IMG/VR virus record: IMGVR_UViG_3300047157_000171 | Source: a virus | Strand: one strand, 5' to 3' | DNA: 64,000 nucleotides | In this document: in pieces, positions 1,452 to 24,138 of the stretch | Position numbering within the stretch: position 1 is the first letter of the stretch | Layout of the letters: each line of letters opens with the position of its first letter | Position numbers and translations under genes: made by a program | Notes under the pieces: generated by a model | Told to the model about the DNA's origin: nothing | What the model saw: only the letters and a program-made list of their open reading frames with translations | Databases searched by the model: none

Positions 1452-3299
1452 TTAATATGATGTTAGTGGTACTGACTTACCCGTTACAAATGGTGTTACT
1501 ACAGGACCTAATGGATGAGCTCCAGTTGCCGGTAATGACACAAATTGATTAACCCCATTCTCACCTAGTTCTTTCATTGCTCCTTTCATAATAGAATCTA
1601 CTAATAGTATATGTTTATTTGGTGAACCGTCCGGTAAACTACCAAGACTCACACCTTGTTTTTCCATGAATTGAATCGCATTGTTGTAAGCTCTTGTTGA
1701 GTTTGCCCCTTCCCTTGCGTATGCACCATAAAGAAGTGGAAACGGTACCCCTAAAGGTATACCTGATTTAAGGTTAAGTAAAGATAATAGTCCTTGAATG
1801 ATACCTATACACGTACTAAAGTCTGTTGTGGTTATAAATTTGTGTAACATAGATAATAGGGCTAGTATAATAGCATATCTACCTCTTAATTGTTGTTTAG
1901 CAATTTCTTTAAGAACCATAGAAACTATTTGAGTTAACTCTTTTTTAATTTCATCCATCAGTTCTTTTTTATACATATCAAACACCCTTTTACCAACTCG
2001 AGTCATAAAACGTTTGTTATTTTCAGCAAATTCCTTTACGTCCTTCGACTTACCTTTAGCCTCATCAATCGCTTTAGTTAATATTATAAATGGAAGAACC
2101 GTTTTTGGTCCCAGCACTTTACCCATTATTGTTGTTGGTAATTGTTTGAATATGTCTAAATTAAGGTTAAGATTTATTGTAGGAACATCAAATCCTGATT
2201 GTTCTACAAATCCACTACCGATATTTTGTAATAACCCTTCTAATACCTCAGACTCAGAAATATTATCTGAATCTAAATCGAGTAAAGAATCGATTAATAA
2301 ATCAGTATTCATCTCACCCTCAAAATTCCCACAATTAACTAATTTATATATTTTATTAATTTTATAATTAAACTCCTCTTCAATTTGTCTTGTATCTTCA
2401 TCGTCAAACGCATAAGACAAATCTTCGTCTTGTGTTGACAAACCATCAATTAAACTTTCTTGTATTAACGCATCCTGTTCGTAAAAGTCACTACACAAAC
2501 TAGCCAAAATTTGCATCATCTTGTTTAATTCTGCGAATGACTTTACCCTTTTGGTTGAGACATCAATTGAAGCCACACCAAATAGTTGGTCCATTAAGTC
2601 AGACATTAAGTCTTTTGTGTTGAATAGTTCAAAAGATGAGTAATAGTGAGAGACAAAATCGGTTACGTTAATGTCCTTAAATTTTAAATTATATTCTTGA
2701 GTGAAGTCGTCAAAACTAAGGTCAAACATTTCTTTACCGTTTGCCGAGGTAAATGTTTTAGGGGAATTTAGGTCATTACTTATCGTAACGTCGTATAACA
2801 TTTTATTAAGTGGTAAAGGATACAATTCGTTATCTATATCACCTTTTTCGTACATTACTCTACCTGGCATTCCTTCAGGAGAAACTTTTAATAAATCAAA
2901 GAAGTCTATTTCTTCAGGAGATAGGTTTATCTCAATACCCGTCAATGAAAAATCAGTTTCACAATTAATCGCCCTAAACAATTCTTCGATAACTATCTTA
3001 GTTATTTTTGGTGAATCGGTAGAAACTTTCTTAATAATTTTTTTAACGAATGTTTTTACTTTATCAGGGCCACCACCGGAACTTTGAAGTAACGTATTAA
3101 CTAATTTTCCGATAAAATCAGTATTAACTGATTTACCACTACCGTCACCTAATAATTTTTTCTTTAACTTATTTGTGTCTAAATAAGCGGAACCAACAGA
3201 CTGAAGGTCAATTTTCTTCATGTCCGACATTGACTGTAGTACCAACTTTATTGAGTCAATACCTTTATCTAATTTGTTTTGTTCCGTCTTTAATCCCAT
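1452..3299 (-). CDS. hypothetical protein, probably virion-associated
   Basis: 615-aa ORF in a late-motif operon upstream of the spike gene; no recognisable catalytic motif. Confidence 0.7.
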   Translation of the reverse strand: MGLKTEQNKLDKGIDSIKLVLQSMSDMKKIDLQSVGSAYLDTNKLKKKLLGDGSGKSVNTDFIGKLVNTLLQSSGGGPDKVKTFVKKIIKKVSTDSPKITKIVIEELFRAINCETDFSLTGIEINLSPEEIDFFDLLKVSPEGMPGRVMYEKGDIDNELYPLPLNKMLYDVTISNDLNSPKTFTSANGKEMFDLSFDDFTQEYNLKFKDINVTDFVSHYYSSFELFNTKDLMSDLMDQLFGVASIDVSTKRVKSFAELNKMMQILASLCSDFYEQDALIQESLIDGLSTQDEDLSYAFDDEDTRQIEEEFNYKINKIYKLVNCGNFEGEMNTDLLIDSLLDLDSDNISESEVLEGLLQNIGSGFVEQSGFDVPTINLNLNLDIFKQLPTTIMGKVLGPKTVLPFIILTKAIDEAKGKSKDVKEFAENNKRFMTRVGKRVFDMYKKELMDEIKKELTQIVSMVLKEIAKQQLRGRYAIILALLSMLHKFITTTDFSTCIGIIQGLLSLLNLKSGIPLGVPFPLLYGAYAREGANSTRAYNNAIQFMEKQGVSLGSLPDGSPNKHILLVDSIMKGAMKELGENGVNQFVSLPATGAHPLGPVVTPFVTGKSVPLTSY

Positions 3300-3673
3300 T
3301 ACATATTAAAATTATCGTCAGATGGTGTATCATTACCTAAACCATTAACCAAATCCTTTAACATTTCTTTATCGTCATCACTCAAAGAACCACCAATGTC
3401 TTCTCGACCTTCTGATGATTTTTGTATAATGACCTGTTGTAGTTTAGCTAATGATAGTTTTTTTTCTAAAACACTATCTAATATTTTTTGTTGTTCTTTA
3501 ATGATAGGACCCAATAAGGTTAAGTCTTCAGGACCTTTCATAAATCCTAACATTTTATTTTGTATCCTAACTGCGGTATTTCTCTGCTCTACAGTTTCGT
3601 TATATATCTCCTGTAGAAGTGCCATTAAACTTTTTTGTGAAAAATTAATTTCTTTTTTAGTTGTTCTTCCCAT
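3299..3673 (-). CDS. hypothetical helical protein
   Basis: 124-aa ORF preceded by the TATTTATT motif (3678-3685); its stop overlaps the next start. Confidence 0.75.
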   Translation of the reverse strand: MGRTTKKEINFSQKSLMALLQEIYNETVEQRNTAVRIQNKMLGFMKGPEDLTLLGPIIKEQQKILDSVLEKKLSLAKLQQVIIQKSSEGREDIGGSLSDDDKEMLKDLVNGLGNDTPSDDNFNM

Positions 3674-3687
3674 ACTAAATAAATAGT

Positions 3688-4389
3688 TTATTCCTGAATT
3701 ACCTGTAACATCATCTCAGAGTATATTTTTTTATACTTTTTCATTGACGTTCTAATTTCTTTTGTGGTCATAGATGTCATGTCTCTTAATGACAATAATA
3801 TAAGGTTCTTATTGAATTTATTTCCTTCCCCTCCTTGAAATATAACTTCGTAGTTAGTGAACACTTCTATTAACGCATATCCTAACTTTTCTTCATTTTT
3901 ATTAAGGTTAGTGATTTCCATAAAATCTTCTAATTCCTTAACTAAACGTTTAACAACGTCTTCATAATCTAAAGAGTCGTTATGTAAGAAGTATGTCATA
4001 TCAGGTCTGCTCTCAACTGAGGACGATATGTCTTCATAAGATATCTTTCTATTTAATTCTTTTTGGTCCTTTAATATCGCACCCATTAAATAGTTTTTAC
4101 AAATCGTACCAAAATACGAATAAGCCTTAGACCCTTTAGAGGGGTCAAACTTATCCGCTTTAGTGATTAAAAATGATGATACGTCAGTATGTAAAGATTC
4201 GTAATCGAAGTCTCTACGATATAATTTATATCTACGAATTATGCTTTCGACCATTTTACTTAATGGTTTTCTAAGACTCTGATTGTAAATCAGATTTCTT
4301 TCCTCATAGGTTTCTGCTTCTAAATATTTTACTACCGCAGCTTCCTCCTCAGGACCAAAGTATTGTTTGTTTTTTCTAGGTCTAGGCAT
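3688..4389 (-). CDS. phage RNA polymerase sigma factor (gp55/sigma70 region-2-like, probable late sigma)
   Basis: Region-2-like stretch ADKFDPSKGSKAYSYFGTICKNYL (compare sigma70 FDPxKGxKFSTYA). Likely start is MPRPRKNKQYF at 4389; the ORF-track start at 4464 overlaps the upstream gene. Confidence 0.75.
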   Translation of the reverse strand: MPRPRKNKQYFGPEEEAAVVKYLEAETYEERNLIYNQSLRKPLSKMVESIIRRYKLYRRDFDYESLHTDVSSFLITKADKFDPSKGSKAYSYFGTICKNYLMGAILKDQKELNRKISYEDISSSVESRPDMTYFLHNDSLDYEDVVKRLVKELEDFMEITNLNKNEEKLGYALIEVFTNYEVIFQGGEGNKFNKNLILLSLRDMTSMTTKEIRTSMKKYKKIYSEMMLQVIQE

Positions 4390-4397
4390 AATAAGTT

Positions 4398-5174
4398 TTA
4401 GTCTTGGTATGTTATCGCTCGGTCTTCTGTGAAAAATTGCTCTTTCTTTGCCGTCTCTAACCAAAACATTGCCTCGTCAGAACTTAACTTATTTTCTCCT
4501 TCTTTGTAATCCCAAAATAGAGAACCTTTTCTAAAGTTAGTGTGTCTATACGTTAACTTAGGTATAACGAATACTTCATTAGACATATGCGTTAAACGAA
4601 GTAAAAATTCGTAACCAAAAGATAATTTAACATTACTCTTAAGACCACCAACTTCGTTATAGACAGACGTTTTAATAATCATACCACTGGTTTGATAGTT
4701 CTCGTAAGACGATAACGATTCGTTATCTAAGTATCCTATAGTTTCTGTTAGGTTCATCGCCCAAACAGATTCATTTGTAAATGACAAGAACTCACCCTGT
4801 GAATTAGTGTCTATGACGATAGGTAGAAAGGTTGATACATCAGGATACGCGTTAATGTGTTGTATAGCGTTTTGTATGTATGTTGGAGTAATCTCATCAT
4901 CCACCTCAGTAATTGCGATGTATTCTGATTTAGTGTTTTGTGCTCCAAAATTAATCTGTGAACAAAAATCAGTTTCTCCAGTGTTCTCTAATAAGGACAC
5001 ATAAGATTCTAAGCTATATTCATTCAAATATTTGGTTAACTCTTTTGTTGGTTTATAAACAATAGTTAATGTAAAATCCTTAACTGTTTGTTTAGATACC
5101 GATTCCATAAAGGTCTCAAATCTCGACCTGAGCTCTTTATTGATTGTATGTATAGGTAAAATTAAATTAATCAT
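4398..5174 (-). CDS. glycosyltransferase, GT2/GT-A fold
   Basis: N-terminal ILPIH strand, 'DFCSQINFG', DxD-like 'EVDDE', 'GGLK...GYEFLLRL'. Confidence 0.8.
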   Translation of the reverse strand: MINLILPIHTINKELRSRFETFMESVSKQTVKDFTLTIVYKPTKELTKYLNEYSLESYVSLLENTGETDFCSQINFGAQNTKSEYIAITEVDDEITPTYIQNAIQHINAYPDVSTFLPIVIDTNSQGEFLSFTNESVWAMNLTETIGYLDNESLSSYENYQTSGMIIKTSVYNEVGGLKSNVKLSFGYEFLLRLTHMSNEVFVIPKLTYRHTNFRKGSLFWDYKEGENKLSSDEAMFWLETAKKEQFFTEDRAITYQD

Positions 5175-6225
5175 TTTCTTCTAATTCTTTAAATTTATCG
5201 ACTGTGAACTCTAATTGTTCTTTTCTCTTTTTTGTTATGTTTGTAAAAACACTTAACGTTTCTTTTGTGAATGTTTCATAAGTTAATTTACTTACCGTTG
5301 AATCCATCTCATCGTATAAGTCTGATGGTATTCTATCTTCTAACCATCCCTTAAATACAGACGCAACTAAATCCACAATTTGATTTGAATCTATAGTCCA
5401 AATACCATTATCCTCTGTCATCCAATCAGGTTTAAGTGTTGGTATTTTACCAATAACAGGTACTCCTGATTTCATAGACTCTAATGGGAATGTTCCATAA
5501 CCTGAAACGTCATCAACCCAAACAGATAAACACGACTCTCTTAATGTTGTCGCGAATTCTTCTTGAGTTAATCCTCTCATATCTCTAAATGTTACCCATT
5601 TAAATTGTGGGTACTTCACATAGAAAGATTTGATTAATTTCATAGTATCTCTTTGGTCACGTGTGTGTATAGAAATAATTGGTTTTTGTGGTTTATCTGA
5701 CTTTGTAAACAATTCAGAAATAAACGGTGTAATAACATCGATATTCAGTTTCTTAAATAAGTCATTAAGATATTGTTTTTGGTCTAAACTTGTAGTTATA
5801 ACCTTATTAAACCCAAAGGAGTTCCAAGTAGCACCTGGTTTTAATGTTTCAAATAAATAATCGTATGACTGACATAGAACTACTTTATTACATGGCATAT
5901 CCGCAATTTGTTCCATTACGTGAGCAAATAACTCAGGTATGATAACTAAGTCATCAGGTCTAACTTGAAGACTACCCTCTTCTATTGAAACAACAGGTGT
6001 TTCATCATACTCTAATGGTAACCAAGAAGAAACCCCTTCATAGTCTTTATTTTCAACTAAGATATGAGCGTTGAACTCATTCTCATTTAATACTCTTACT
6101 AAATCGTAAGAATGTTTGATTGATGCTTTAGCATTACCTTTAGCATCTTGTACGAACACATAAACGTTCGACTCTAATTTGTCGAGACGTTCGATAGCCT
6201 CGTTAATTACTTTTACTTTATCCAT
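5167..6225 (-). CDS. glycosyltransferase, GT-B (GT4-like) fold
   Basis: C-terminal 'EEFATTLRESCLSVWVDDVSGYGTFPLESMKSGVPVIG' matches the GT4 E-x7-E / G.PVI region. Confidence 0.75.
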   Translation of the reverse strand: MDKVKVINEAIERLDKLESNVYVFVQDAKGNAKASIKHSYDLVRVLNENEFNAHILVENKDYEGVSSWLPLEYDETPVVSIEEGSLQVRPDDLVIIPELFAHVMEQIADMPCNKVVLCQSYDYLFETLKPGATWNSFGFNKVITTSLDQKQYLNDLFKKLNIDVITPFISELFTKSDKPQKPIISIHTRDQRDTMKLIKSFYVKYPQFKWVTFRDMRGLTQEEFATTLRESCLSVWVDDVSGYGTFPLESMKSGVPVIGKIPTLKPDWMTEDNGIWTIDSNQIVDLVASVFKGWLEDRIPSDLYDEMDSTVSKLTYETFTKETLSVFTNITKKRKEQLEFTVDKFKELEEND

Positions 6226-12814: not shown

Positions 12815-13543
12815 CTACTTAAGTTTGTTAATGATATATTTTTTATCTTCGTCAGATAAATCTATTAAAAATTTTAATTTTCTATCTAATATTGGATTTG
12901 GTTCAGATTCGACATCGTCTTCCTCTTCTATTGTTGGTTCTAAAATGTCTTTAGGTGAATCTTTTTTAGATATTACCGAATCAACATATTCTTCAATCTG
13001 ACCTTTAGTCATCTTTTCGATAAGTCTTACCTTATCTTCTGATGATGGGATATAACCCATTTTTTCTAATCTTTCTTTAGCATCGATTTCCTCGAAGTCT
13101 AATTCGTCCATAAAATACTTTAACGCCTCTTCATAAGATGCGTTCTTACCCATTGTTTCTTCAAACCCTAAGGAATCGTCCATTTCTGACTCACCCCAGT
13201 ATCTTCTCATATAATGTCCTTTTTGGAATGGAGGTTGAGAGGTTGCACTTACTTGCGCATCAGAGGTCTTTCTAGCGGTAACGCTTTTAGCCCTAATATC
13301 TTTAGGTATTTTTGATGTCGGGATTGACCCGTCAAAATCTACAATTTCTTCAATTTCTTCTTCAGTTGCCTTTTCAGGTAACTTTTTGAAGTTTGTATCT
13401 TTAGCAAATTCATCAGCCATTTTACACCATTTCTTCTTTTCTTTTTTTGAAAGTGAATCGTCATTACACTTTGCAAAGAAGAATTTTTGTTGTTTTTTTG
13501 ACTCGAATTTCTCTAATACTATCTGTTTTAATCTTTGGTCCAT
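12815..13543 (-). CDS. hypothetical protein
   Basis: 242-aa ORF preceded by TATTTATA (minus strand, 13561-13568). Confidence 0.75.
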   Translation of the reverse strand: MDQRLKQIVLEKFESKKQQKFFFAKCNDDSLSKKEKKKWCKMADEFAKDTNFKKLPEKATEEEIEEIVDFDGSIPTSKIPKDIRAKSVTARKTSDAQVSATSQPPFQKGHYMRRYWGESEMDDSLGFEETMGKNASYEEALKYFMDELDFEEIDAKERLEKMGYIPSSEDKVRLIEKMTKGQIEEYVDSVISKKDSPKDILEPTIEEEDDVESEPNPILDRKLKFLIDLSDEDKKYIINKLK

Positions 13544-15072: not shown

Positions 15073-15417
15073 ATGGAACATTTTATAAAACAACATTCAC
15101 AGGAACCAATTTTATCGGTTACGTTATATAACGACGAAAAATTCTTTAAAGAACCTTTTGGTGATAGAATTGAGAATTCTATTATTACTTTTAATATGGT
15201 TGATGAAAAAGGGGCGTATAAAATATTAAACGGTGAGTGTGACTTAATTTTTGAAAATGGTGACTACTCTATCATATATCCTTTTACCAAGTCAGATACT
15301 AAAAAAATTGGGGAATATAAAGGAGAATTTAAAATACAATTCTTAAACGACACGTACAGAGTGTCTACTGAAACCATACTTCCAATAAAAGAAGAATTAA
15401 TCGTCTCAATTATTTGA
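15073..15417 (+). CDS. BppU-like / baseplate-associated Ig-like domain protein
   Basis: 'IKQ.S..P.L...L....ITFNM...YPFT..DT...G.Y.GEF.I.F' pattern. Confidence 0.55.
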   Translation: MEHFIKQHSQEPILSVTLYNDEKFFKEPFGDRIENSIITFNMVDEKGAYKILNGECDLIFENGDYSIIYPFTKSDTKKIGEYKGEFKIQFLNDTYRVSTETILPIKEELIVSII

Positions 15418-15443
15418 TAATTTACCAAGTTTTCGTATCTTTG
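15413..15443 (+). promoter_or_regulatory. Bacteroidota housekeeping-sigma promoter upstream of DNA polymerase
   Basis: TTTG (15413-15416), N19, TATCTTTG (15436-15443): exact match to the TTTG-N19-21-TAnnTTTG consensus. Confidence 0.75.
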
Positions 15444-20866: not shown

Positions 20867-20898
20867 TTTGTAGTAATAGAATATTTTACTTATCTTTG
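20867..20898 (+). promoter_or_regulatory. Bacteroidota housekeeping-sigma promoter
   Basis: TTTG (20867-20870), N20, TATCTTTG (20891-20898), in a divergent intergenic gap upstream of 20935. Confidence 0.75.
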
Positions 20899-20934
20899 TA
20901 GTATAATAATAAGAACCATAAAAAAATAAATAAT

Positions 20935-21699
20935 ATGTCTACAGTTTACTCTTTCATCAGCGAATACAACGGAAACAATTCTTTCTTAAACTCTTTAAAG
21001 ACGGGATACGCAAAGTATGGCCGATTAACACCATCACAGTTGTCAGCGGCGGACAGAGTAATCACAAACATTCGTGAAAAAGTTAAATCAATGGCACCAA
21101 TCGAAGTTCGTAAGAATATCGAGCAAATTATGGATTACAAAGGGGATAATAAGTTCGTATTAGACCTTAAAGCTAAGTACGAAAAATACGGGAAACTAAC
21201 CGAGAAACAAATCGACGCAGGTTTGAAAGTTGTAAACCGTAAGGTTCAGAACAAAATGGCAAAACCTTTACGTTTACCTAAGACTGAAACAATTGTAGTT
21301 GGTCAAAGAACGGGTCGTAGTATCAAAGAAGAGAAGGGATTAGATTTCTTACCAATCCAAATTGATGTATCTCACATAATCGGTGTTTCTCGTAAAGCGG
21401 TTCATTTGAGAGGGAAACTATCTACTGTTGTTGGTTCTGTATGTCGTTGTTGTGGTAGAAAATTAACTGATGAGTTGTCAAAACTTACAGGTATGGGTAG
21501 AACATGTGCCAAAAACACCAATGTACCATACGTTAAAAACACGGACGACCTTGAGCGTTTTATGGAAGACTTAAAGGTTCGTGTAGATGAAATTGGAGAA
21601 TTTGATTTTTGGATTCCTAAATCACAAATTATCGAGTGGAAAGGAATTTACAAAGCAATGGCAAAAACAAGTTTCAGAACTTATGTGGTTACTTCTTAA
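20935..21699 (+). CDS. DUF6011 zinc-finger protein homologous to the SNF2 helicase N-terminal domain
   Basis: CRCCGRKLTD..S...GMG..C (DUF6011-like); two 57-aa-period repeats (Y.G.N.F...LK..Y.KYG.LT..Q); WIPKSQII near the C-terminus. Confidence 0.7.
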   Translation: MSTVYSFISEYNGNNSFLNSLKTGYAKYGRLTPSQLSAADRVITNIREKVKSMAPIEVRKNIEQIMDYKGDNKFVLDLKAKYEKYGKLTEKQIDAGLKVVNRKVQNKMAKPLRLPKTETIVVGQRTGRSIKEEKGLDFLPIQIDVSHIIGVSRKAVHLRGKLSTVVGSVCRCCGRKLTDELSKLTGMGRTCAKNTNVPYVKNTDDLERFMEDLKVRVDEIGEFDFWIPKSQIIEWKGIYKAMAKTSFRTYVVTS

Positions 21700-22297
21700 G
21701 TTTAATGATAATCTCGTCCCCTTTTCTTTTAATACTAAAGGAATCGGGGGATAGGTTTTTGTAGTAGTCTTCATACATTGAAAACTCATCTGTTGTTTTA
21801 CTATTTTTAGATTCTTTTAGAGGTGTAATCACTTTTTCGCTCATCTCCTGAATCTCCACTTCGCTGACATCGTAACTTCTAACATCCCTCTCTATCAACT
21901 CTAATTCGTTCCACTCTGAATCTTCAAGAATTCTTTTTTCTATGTCCTCTTTGGAATAACCTTCAAGGGTACCTTCATAATAATCTGTGCCATACCCACT
22001 CCACATAACTTCAGCTCCTACCTCAAATCGTTTAAGTTTTGGTTCTTTAATGAAATTTTCGTCATTTACGTTTAACGTTGGGGATAATTGAAAGCTAGCA
22101 ATCGCTTTGTTAACTAATCCTTCCTCTTGCCATTGAAACCCAAACTGTCTTGCGTATTTTCTAATCGATGATACTATTTTCTCGGGGTCATCACTAAAAT
22201 TATGATATTTAGATGATAACACTCTAGAAACAAAAACAAGAAATTGGTCATATTTAACCTCTGTTATTTCTTCCGTAATACGTTTTCTTAAATTCAT
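21689..22297 (-). CDS. hypothetical protein
   Basis: 202-aa ORF with TATTTATT upstream (22316-22323); leader MNLRKRITEEITE. Confidence 0.7.
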   Translation of the reverse strand: MNLRKRITEEITEVKYDQFLVFVSRVLSSKYHNFSDDPEKIVSSIRKYARQFGFQWQEEGLVNKAIASFQLSPTLNVNDENFIKEPKLKRFEVGAEVMWSGYGTDYYEGTLEGYSKEDIEKRILEDSEWNELELIERDVRSYDVSEVEIQEMSEKVITPLKESKNSKTTDEFSMYEDYYKNLSPDSFSIKRKGDEIIIKLKK

Positions 22298-22327
22298 TAG
22301 TGTGTGTTGTAAAATAATAAATAGTCA

Positions 22328-24076
22328 TTAACCCTCTTTGAGAGCCGAAAGTAGGTCTTCCATAACCGAATTACCCATATTATCTTCGTTATCTCCCATA
22401 ACAGTGTCTATAACATTTTTCTTTCTTTGTAAAATATCATAGATAATCATTTCTATTGTGTTTTCAAACACTGGATAAAATACAGATACGTTTGATTGTT
22501 GACCATAACGATACGCTCGGTCCTCTGCTTGTGAATGGTCTGAAGGTACAAAAGATAAATCGTTAAAGATTACGACCTCACCTGCGGTTAGGGTAATACC
22601 CACACCAGCGGCCTTAATGTTTCCAACAAAAACCTGTATTTTGTCGTCAGTCTGAAACCTATCAACAGACTCTTGTCGTTTTGCTTTACTCATTTTACCG
22701 TTTAAGGTTACAGAACGTTTGTTGTATTTCCACGCAATCTCTTCTAATGTTGCGGTAAAACTTGTAAACACAATGACTTTTTTACCTTGTTCGATGGCAC
22801 TGTCAATTAATTCGTATGTTGACTTTAGTTTGGCCTCTGCAATTATTTGTCTAGCGACCATTAACTTAGATAATTTAACCGCCAATGTTTTTTTAGTGTT
22901 ATCGTTGTTTGCCCATTCAACATATTCACCAATCTCTTTTTCATATTCTTTAGATTTTAAATTAAGATAAACAGGGGTTATAATCTTATCGGGTAAATCT
23001 AAGATGTCTTCTTTTAGTCTTCTAAGTACTTGAGGTTTTGTTCTATCTCTTAATTCCTCTAAATTAGATGCTCCGTTAACATTCCACACTTTTCTATTAC
23101 CGGCTTGGAATTGGTAACCATCACAATATCTCTTAACATAACCCGCCCAATTAATAGTTAAGGGAGAGTCTACAATATGTAATAAGTTAAAGTAGTTGAT
23201 TGGTCTTGATGTCATTGGTGTTCCTGTGAGTAACCATACACGACCAACTTGTCTAACCATATGGTTTACTAATTGTGTTCTTTTAGCTTGTTTGTTTTGT
23301 ATATAATGGGCTTCATCAATTAAAACCAAATCAAACCCTTCATCTAATATTTTAGATTTAAACTCGTCATCGTTCTTTTTTGGTATTTCATGGAAGTTTT
23401 TTAATATGTCATAATTGATAATAACAAACTTACCATCATCCCATTTTTTACCTTCAACTATGGCGACATTTTCATCGGTATAGTTTTTAATTTCTCGTTT
23501 CCAATTTAATTTAAGTGATGCGGGACAAATAACCAATATTTTATTTGCACCACTTTCAACCGCAGCAATGACCGCTGAGGTTGTTTTCCCTAACCCCATA
23601 TCATCGGCTAAAATATATTTATCGTTTCCTAACAATTTTACAATAGCCTCTTTTTGGTGGTCCATTGGAGGTCTATGGTTATATGGTTCCCAATCAACCT
23701 CAACTTTTCGTTCGTTGTATGTGATAATATGAGATTTAGGAATCCACATACATTCTAAGGCGGCTTTATCTAATATTTTACCATAGATGTGAAACGCCTT
23801 TTCTGTTTGTGTTAGTAATTTCTCGATATATATTTTTTTGATTGGTTGTGGTAATAGTCTTTCTTCTCTTAACTTATCACCAAAGTAAGAGTCCAACTCA
23901 ACCCACTTTCTCGCAACTTTAGGAGTATTTTCGTGGTTTTTAATTATGTACTCAGCCTGTGAACGAGACGGTTTATATCCCTTAGTAAAGAAAAGTTTTT
24001 CCTTACACCCTAGAATATAGTTATTTCCTCCTTCATATTTTTTTAATATTTCTATTGCTTTCTGTTCTGGAATCAT
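22328..24076 (-). CDS. SNF2-family (SMARCAL1/HARP-like) helicase
   Basis: LADDMGLGKT, DEAH, LTGTP, 'RRLKEDI.DLP', 'AAGVGITLT', 'QAEDRAYRYGQ'. Confidence 0.92.
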   Translation of the reverse strand: MIPEQKAIEILKKYEGGNNYILGCKEKLFFTKGYKPSRSQAEYIIKNHENTPKVARKWVELDSYFGDKLREERLLPQPIKKIYIEKLLTQTEKAFHIYGKILDKAALECMWIPKSHIITYNERKVEVDWEPYNHRPPMDHQKEAIVKLLGNDKYILADDMGLGKTTSAVIAAVESGANKILVICPASLKLNWKREIKNYTDENVAIVEGKKWDDGKFVIINYDILKNFHEIPKKNDDEFKSKILDEGFDLVLIDEAHYIQNKQAKRTQLVNHMVRQVGRVWLLTGTPMTSRPINYFNLLHIVDSPLTINWAGYVKRYCDGYQFQAGNRKVWNVNGASNLEELRDRTKPQVLRRLKEDILDLPDKIITPVYLNLKSKEYEKEIGEYVEWANNDNTKKTLAVKLSKLMVARQIIAEAKLKSTYELIDSAIEQGKKVIVFTSFTATLEEIAWKYNKRSVTLNGKMSKAKRQESVDRFQTDDKIQVFVGNIKAAGVGITLTAGEVVIFNDLSFVPSDHSQAEDRAYRYGQQSNVSVFYPVFENTIEMIIYDILQRKKNVIDTVMGDNEDNMGNSVMEDLLSALKEG

Positions 24077-24138
24077 AATTGCGCATTATACTAAATAATA
24101 AACATTAAACTAAACTTAATCAAGAGATATTTATTAGT

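Follow-up and report, generated by a model that had tools for sequence, protein, structure and literature searches.

The locus described here occupies positions 20,935 to 24,076 of a 64,000-nucleotide stretch of viral DNA (IMG/VR virus record IMGVR_UViG_3300047157_000171; hereafter the window) and contains two convergent genes, one for a small basic protein and one for an SNF2 helicase, whose products share a homologous domain. The small-protein gene, P0001, is an open reading frame (ORF) on the plus strand (20935-21699) encoding 254 amino acids (aa) with a net charge of +18, and the helicase gene, P0002, is an ORF on the minus strand (22328-24076) encoding 582 aa. A third ORF lies between them. 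This ORF, P0003 (21689-22297, minus strand), is downstream of the helicase gene, encodes an acidic protein of 202 aa and overlaps the 3' end of the small gene by 11 bp on the opposite strand.

The small protein begins with a three-helix unit that is present in two copies. Copy 1 (aa 1-56; 20935-21102, plus strand) is matched separately by the core hidden Markov model (HMM) of the small-protein family (E 4.5e-12) and by phrog_4046 (E 3.6e-13), and copy 2 (aa 57-105; 21103-21249, plus strand) is aligned by hhalign to helicase aa 6-47. In the AlphaFold2 model, the helices of copy 1 span residues 4-10, 16-28 and 33-53, and those of copy 2 span residues 56-66, 73-85 and 90-100. Residues 8-43 and 65-100 are 44% identical (E 1e-11) at an offset of 57, which bears out the statement of the initial annotation, made from the sequence without database searches, that the first helical unit is duplicated with a 57-aa period. 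The helical units are followed by the first part of a barrel, consisting of a strand, a helix and two strands (aa 106-165; 21250-21429, plus strand), which is aligned to helicase aa 53-102. An insert (aa 166-221; 21430-21597, plus strand) then carries a DUF6011 cysteine finger (Pfam PF19474) followed by a long helix, with model helices at 180-185, 189-194 and 203-220. The last strands of the barrel (aa 222-240; 21598-21654, plus strand) contain the motif FWIPKSQII, are modeled at residues 223-228 and 232-235, and are aligned to helicase aa 108-120 when the insert is removed from the hhalign comparison.

DUF6011 is the only Pfam family found in P0001 (aa 169-193, E 4.2e-9, 36.2 bits against a cut-off of 26.6). 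Cysteines 170, 172, 173 and 191 lie in this finger; C170, C173, G188 and C191 are invariant in 79 representatives of the small-protein family, and the DUF6011 pattern CxxC...G-x-G-x-x-C is present. All 79 representatives contain DUF6011 and essentially nothing else that Pfam recognizes, and one of them also matches the N-terminal single-stranded DNA (ssDNA)-binding domain of ArdC (PF08401, E 6e-5). The Pfam model, however, covers only about 30 residues, is labeled a 'family of unknown function', and describes neither the barrel, nor the helical unit, nor a link to SNF2 proteins. Between model helices 180-185 and 189-194 the finger has the pattern L-x-x-x-G-h-G-x-x-C-A (LTGMGRTCAK in P0001; family consensus GIGPxCA), which resembles that of a helix-hairpin-helix (HhH). 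The finger looks like an HhH held by three invariant cysteines; Pfam gives this no confirmation, as its HhH models touched only one of the 79 family members (E 0.019).

The helicase has the same kind of N-terminus with a single helical unit and no finger. Its three-helix unit (aa 1-49; 23930-24076, minus strand; model helices 3-13, 19-30 and 38-47) is aligned with unit 2 of the small protein, and its barrel (aa 50-120; 23717-23929, minus strand) is modeled as strand 53-61, helix 63-73 and strands 81-90, 94-100 and 108-113. The SNF2 motor follows from about aa 133 to 582 (22328-23680, minus strand; Pfam SNF2-rel_dom and Helicase_C). Both lobes belong clearly to their families (PF00176, E 6.9e-26, 91.4 bits, cut-off 24.9; PF00271, E 1.8e-17, 64 bits, cut-off 23.5), and the best solved relative in a PDB profile search is the Rad54-like chain 1z63 from Sulfolobus (E 3.8e-46). 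NCBIfam returned a generic SNF2 protein, with nothing above cut-off. Pfam found only the two motor lobes, from about aa 138, and left the first 130 residues unannotated. A Pfam search with 31 helicase N-domains at E up to 10 gave no match whatever, HARP, HIRAN and the RapA Tudor domain included; a search with the full helicase at E up to 1 gave no HARP match, and the ESM Atlas gave no lead for the N-domain. Neither the helicase N-domain nor the small-protein barrel is covered by any Pfam, annotated PHROG, NCBIfam or PDB entry.

In a pairwise BLASTP comparison, the match between the two proteins is marginal (small protein aa 56-170 against helicase aa 2-109, 24% identity, E 0.009, plus the word WIPKS), and for this reason families were built for profile comparison. 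There were 25 close relatives of P0001 and hundreds of relatives of the helicase N-terminus. When the small-family alignment was compared by hhalign with the 31 helicase N-domains, which were cut from viral contigs, the match had a probability of 93.7% and an E value of 1.9e-7; with a broader core profile of 90 cluster representatives these values were 96.1% and 3.5e-9. Removal of residues 166-221 raised the match to 98.4% and E 1.1e-14 over 111 columns, corresponding to helicase aa 6-120, and the resulting alignment has no break between the Y-x-G-x-N helix and WIPKS, with the KA.H..GK strands in between. Controls with the reversed helicase alignment gave E values of 0.22-0.37. The search was also reciprocal, as the best non-self match of each family HMM among all six-frame ORFs of the window was the other gene (E 1.1e-8 and 6.4e-9). 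Helicases of this family that are more divergent score better still against the small-family core HMM, with E values down to 3e-15, and single-unit small proteins are in turn matched by the first 109 positions of the full helicase HMM. The ORF at 12815-13543 was a candidate for a third copy of the unit (HMM E 0.006) but was rejected, its product being an acidic protein of low complexity.

These data confirm that the small protein and helicase aa 6-120 are homologous. The initial annotation had aligned the two proteins by eye and proposed that the small one is a stand-alone version of the helicase N-domain; hhalign aligns the same columns, and the proposal holds. Its further view of the DUF6011 finger as an insertion agrees with the shift of the helicase match from E 3.5e-9 to E 1.1e-14 on removal of the insert. 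The term 'paralog', on the other hand, is right as to homology but not if it is taken to mean a recent copy of the helicase N-terminus, since the small protein belongs to a large and old family of 1375 cluster representatives.

The predicted structures were compared indirectly, by the order of their elements, by the PDB matches that they have in common and by a match in BFVD. The AlphaFold2 models have a pLDDT of 79 for the small protein and 85 for helicase residues 1-135, and both follow the same order, H-H-H-E-H-E-E-[insert]-E. In the small protein the last strands are set apart by a 56-residue excursion, made up of the finger with its two short helices and a long helix after it. The Sm/SH3-like PDB chains matched by the two barrels are the same, as are the residues covered (e.g., 2ej9_A residues 191-235/237). 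A Foldseek search of the predicted viral structures in BFVD with the small-protein model gave four significant matches, of which three are small relatives, including Bacillus phage G gp639, and the fourth in rank is a viral SNF2 helicase of 586 aa (E 3.2e-5, 185 columns). By this indirect comparison and the significant profile alignment, the outcome that the initial annotation had named as refuting its proposal (predicted structures that do not superpose, or a non-significant alignment) did not arise. Foldseek found nothing in the PDB at E <= 0.001 for either model, and the small-family profile matched solved structures at chance level only (E >= 0.17). The fold is predicted to be a generic small Sm/SH3-like barrel joined to a three-helix unit. 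Resemblance to the barrels of Sm/Hfq and WYL proteins scores only at the level of a common arrangement, with no sequence relation, and the phage barrel differs by an extra helix after strand 1.

The small-protein family is widespread in uncultured phages. An exhaustive profile search found 1375 cluster representatives at E <= 0.001, 266 of them at E <= 1e-10, and intact homologues of P0001 occur in 289 viral-contig stretches at 38-100% identity. Most members are 180-350 aa long and consist of one helical unit, the barrel and the finger, and others have two or three helical units. ESM Atlas clusters for the small protein carry only the description 'hypothetical protein, DUF6011', and single-protein scans with P0217 and P0201 found nothing. 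One protein, P0163 (433 aa), joins an unrelated N-terminal part of roughly 320 residues to the last barrel strands and the finger and is probably a chimera of assembly or gene calling.

In several phages the module is joined directly to an SNF2 motor. The protein P0297 (669 aa) has barrel strands, the DUF6011 finger and WIPKSQ followed by the motor; an ORF of 750 aa on a 356-kb contig (L230) has the full barrel and finger followed by the motor; and in L232 and L233 (730 aa) the finger alone precedes it. In other phages the module is free but close to the helicase gene. The Herelleviridae phages Nachito and YungSlug (Bacillus) and LysYB1 (Lysinibacillus) encode a barrel-plus-finger protein of 170-187 aa (core HMM E 1e-18 to 1e-21), and in all three its gene has the same direction as the only SNF2 helicase gene of the genome and is upstream of it, with at most one gene between them. 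In phage G, the barrel-plus-finger gene and the SNF2 gene are 24 kb apart.

Two side observations concern the same proteins. Between their N-terminal module and their motor, the fused and Herelleviridae-type SNF2 helicases have a short G-x-W-D/N-x-x-x-K-x-W element in one or two copies (P0297 aa 138-176; L230, ORF 2941-5190; L232, ORF 2944-5133; and L245 5546-7783, the Nachito helicase). They resemble DUF5710, although the Pfam match is weak (E 7e-4) and limited to P0297, and they may be a further unannotated accessory piece. In the Gordonia phage Wooper, gp42 (L249 5593-6168, 191 aa) has a DUF6011 finger at its very C-terminus without a barrel in an otherwise unrelated protein; its gene neighbors two helix-turn-helix (HTH) regulators, and the 61-kb genome has no SNF2 gene. 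The finger by itself is thus a mobile piece that moves between protein contexts.

Co-occurrence of the two genes across related phages, which the initial annotation had proposed as a check, was found in related jumbo-phage records. Four of the five long records with the small gene also carry a helicase with the N-domain, and the fifth record is 56% complete. Conversely, two of five records with the helicase also carry the small gene, including one that is 99% complete, and the three that lack it have a completeness of 43-60%; the two near-complete records, of 290-297 kb, each carry both genes. Among more distant family members, six of ten incomplete records carry an SNF2 helicase of roughly 600 aa, in each case (6/6) with the N-domain. 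Because all these phages may be kin, co-occurrence alone is no proof of a functional link. Combined with the fusions and with the gene adjacency in distant phages, however, it supports a functional link between the small protein and the helicase. The helical unit is common to helicase and small protein only in the lineage of the window, and for this reason we think that the segment was probably exchanged between the two genes in this lineage.

The arrangement seen in the window is much more restricted. Among marine relatives, the convergent cassette of helicase, P0003 and small gene occurs only in the window's clade (small protein at least 64% and helicase at least 83% identical). P0003 is conserved in that clade only, where it always lies between the other two genes; it has no match in Pfam, PHROG or NCBIfam. 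In 73 marine loci with more distant small proteins there is no helicase within 8 kb, and nearly all conserved neighbors of the small gene lack annotation, a ClpB-like ATPase and a peptidase excepted, so that they give no functional clue. The source phage itself is an uncultured tailed phage with sheath genes and AT-rich DNA (about 33% GC). Its DNA polymerase is 24% identical to that of the nearest cultured relatives, which are Salinibacter phages, searches of cultured phages with the window DNA and with the helicase N-domain gave no matches, and contigs related to the window reach up to 290-300 kb.

Upstream of the small gene, at 20867-20898 on the plus strand, is a promoter-like motif of the Bacteroidetes -33/-7 type (TTTG-N20-TAnnTTTG) that ends 37 nucleotides (nt) before the ATG. 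A search for this pattern gave five matches in the window against 2.0 expected. Only two of the five are directly upstream of a gene start, that of the small gene and that of the family-B DNA polymerase gene (15486); the latter motif (TTTG-N19-TAnnTTTG, 15413-15443, plus strand) lies 43 nt upstream of its gene and may be of the same promoter class. Both TTTGTAGT boxes of the small-gene motif are also retained in front of three diverged orthologues, those in L085, L086 and L087. A sigma-70 scan of the small-gene region was at chance level, and no terminator was predicted between the convergent units. The motif at 20867-20898 is a putative promoter, and it is the only feature found for the 'perfect host promoter', and hence likely early expression, of the initial annotation. 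The sequence TAGTATAAT precedes both genes: one copy (20899-20907, plus strand) lies 28 nt before the start codon of the small gene and another (24085-24093, minus strand) lies 9 nt before that of the helicase gene, and the window has only three copies in all. It was considered as a shared regulatory site and dropped, as it is not conserved in the relatives L086 and L087, and it is probably not such an element.

Accessory domains that exist both fused to SNF2 motors and free are known from HIRAN and HARP. HARP is a small alpha/beta module, sometimes in tandem, that lies directly N-terminal to the SNF2 motor and confers recognition of DNA structure, and a HARP-like fold is also found in the UvsW N-domain, the DNA damage recognition domain (DRD) of XPB and domain I of MutS. 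To our knowledge, HARP has not been found with a zinc finger or as a free-standing phage protein. The HARP domains of the annealing helicase SMARCAL1 were reportedly the subject of a study by Mason and coworkers in PNAS in 2014. The phage N-domain resembles HARP in lying directly before the motor, and JGI names many of these phage helicases SMARCAL1-like. It differs in that it is predicted to be an Sm/SH3-like barrel with a three-helix unit and in that no SMARCAL1 chain is among its listed fold matches. The name 'annealing helicase', which was used in the initial annotation, comes solely from the automatic JGI names. HARP, HIRAN, UvsW, XPB and RapA domains are absent from Pfam results and from the listed Foldseek and VIA-align matches, which does not exclude the fold, and NCBIfam sees a generic SNF2 protein; the reading as a HARP-like annealing helicase was therefore dropped as unsupported.

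HIRAN is a small barrel that lies N-terminal to the SNF2 motor and also stands alone in bacteria and phages. This domain of HLTF/Rad5 is said to have been treated by Iyer, Babu and Aravind in 2006. The phage module follows the same logic of action in cis and in trans but has no Pfam match to HIRAN and no HIRAN chain among its listed fold matches, and its predicted strand order differs, with a helix after strand 1. RapA, a bacterial SNF2 protein, docks on RNA polymerase by N-terminal Tudor-like barrels. Like the predicted phage barrel, these are small barrels of bent beta-sheet placed N-terminally in an SNF2 ATPase of a prokaryote, whereas sequence gives no match (NCBIfam RapA, 53.7 bits against a cut-off of 576). 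In the library of papers searched, none named DUF6011 in full text, and nothing on this domain came up under phage SNF2 or HARP.

We propose that the small protein is the free form of an accessory module that this lineage of phage SNF2 helicases carries before its motor, with the helical unit doubled and a DUF6011 finger and helix inserted in the loop before the last barrel strand. Since the barrel immediately precedes the motor, the position that HARP and HIRAN occupy in eukaryotic fork remodelers, it is likely the targeting element of these motors and would recognize DNA structure, to which the finger may add grip on the DNA backbone. The small protein is more basic than the helicase N-domain (net charge +18 versus +4), and the aligned strands have conserved lysines (KA, GK, WIPKS); the small protein may thus bind DNA, presumably the substrate of the helicase, and would work in trans as a targeting or loading subunit. 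Because other phages encode the module fused to or beside SNF2 motors, the small protein is probably a DNA-targeting partner of SNF2 helicases, and the fused barrel-plus-finger of those phages could do the same job in cis. Our best reading, held with moderate confidence, is that it is a DNA-binding subunit acting in trans on the same substrate as the helicase. The fusions, the Herelleviridae adjacency and the co-occurrence lend independent support to the suggestion of the initial annotation that the protein is a motor-less partner or a DNA-binding module shared with the helicase; DNA binding itself is what we infer.

The same features might instead describe an antagonist. The small protein has the fold and the conserved strand motifs of the helicase N-domain without a motor, and it could occupy the DNA structure or partner site of that domain and keep the motor off, as a timer of the dominant-negative type expressed from a separate promoter. 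The gene layout would suit such a role: the small gene has its own conserved promoter-like motif of putative host type and the helicase gene does not, and the two convergent transcription units, small gene and helicase operon, overlap at their 3' ends and could interfere with each other. However, the fused forms unite barrel, finger and motor in one polypeptide, and the small gene of the Herelleviridae is co-directional with the helicase gene and just upstream of it. Both arrangements fit cooperation better than inhibition, and we regard antagonism as unlikely.

Similarly improbable in our view is a role in protein docking, in which a Tudor/SH3-like barrel would bind a hub such as RNA polymerase, single-stranded DNA-binding protein (SSB), the clamp or another replisome part, with the helicase and the small protein as two separate clients. 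Small barrels at the ends of the bacterial translocases RapA, Mfd and UvrD/PcrA dock on RNA polymerase, the fold matches found here are generic Sm/SH3-like barrels, and the helicase N-domain, at +4, is only mildly basic. The charge and the finger of the small protein nevertheless point to nucleic acid, Pfam gave the N-domain no match at E up to 10, to the RapA Tudor or any other family, and no conserved neighbor gene stands beside the small gene in the 73 marine loci as a candidate partner. Least likely of all is that there is no functional link, the domain being an old mobile one shared by descent and the small protein having its own job (e.g., an early DNA-binding regulator or a nucleoid protein): adjacency to the helicase gene is limited to a single clade, the small-protein family seems to be the larger of the two, and phage Wooper has the finger beside HTH regulators without any SNF2 gene, but at least four further lineages show fusion or adjacency independently, and the helical unit is specifically common to the helicase and the small protein of this lineage.

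SNF2 motors are generic DNA translocases whose accessory domains set the role of each one. SNF2 helicases are common in large phages, and hardly anything has been described of their accessory parts. A stretch of about 120 residues of the helicase, outside any Pfam model, is now a defined domain comprising a three-helix unit and a barrel, and DUF6011 and at least 1375 protein clusters are tied to SNF2 motors through homology, fusion and gene order. A broader proposal, which we offer tentatively and would not call probable, is that the barrel, with or without the finger, is an undescribed and widespread substrate-recognition module of phage SNF2 translocases. These would be two-part remodelers, made of a motor and a free or fused sensor and analogous but unrelated to those with HARP or HIRAN, in which the free protein marks forks, gaps or ends and recruits the motor. 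The hypothesis is testable in the cultured phages Nachito, YungSlug and LysYB1, where the small gene is beside the helicase gene. If it is true that the module reads DNA structure, it would represent a third solution, independent of HARP and HIRAN, for aiming an SNF2 motor.

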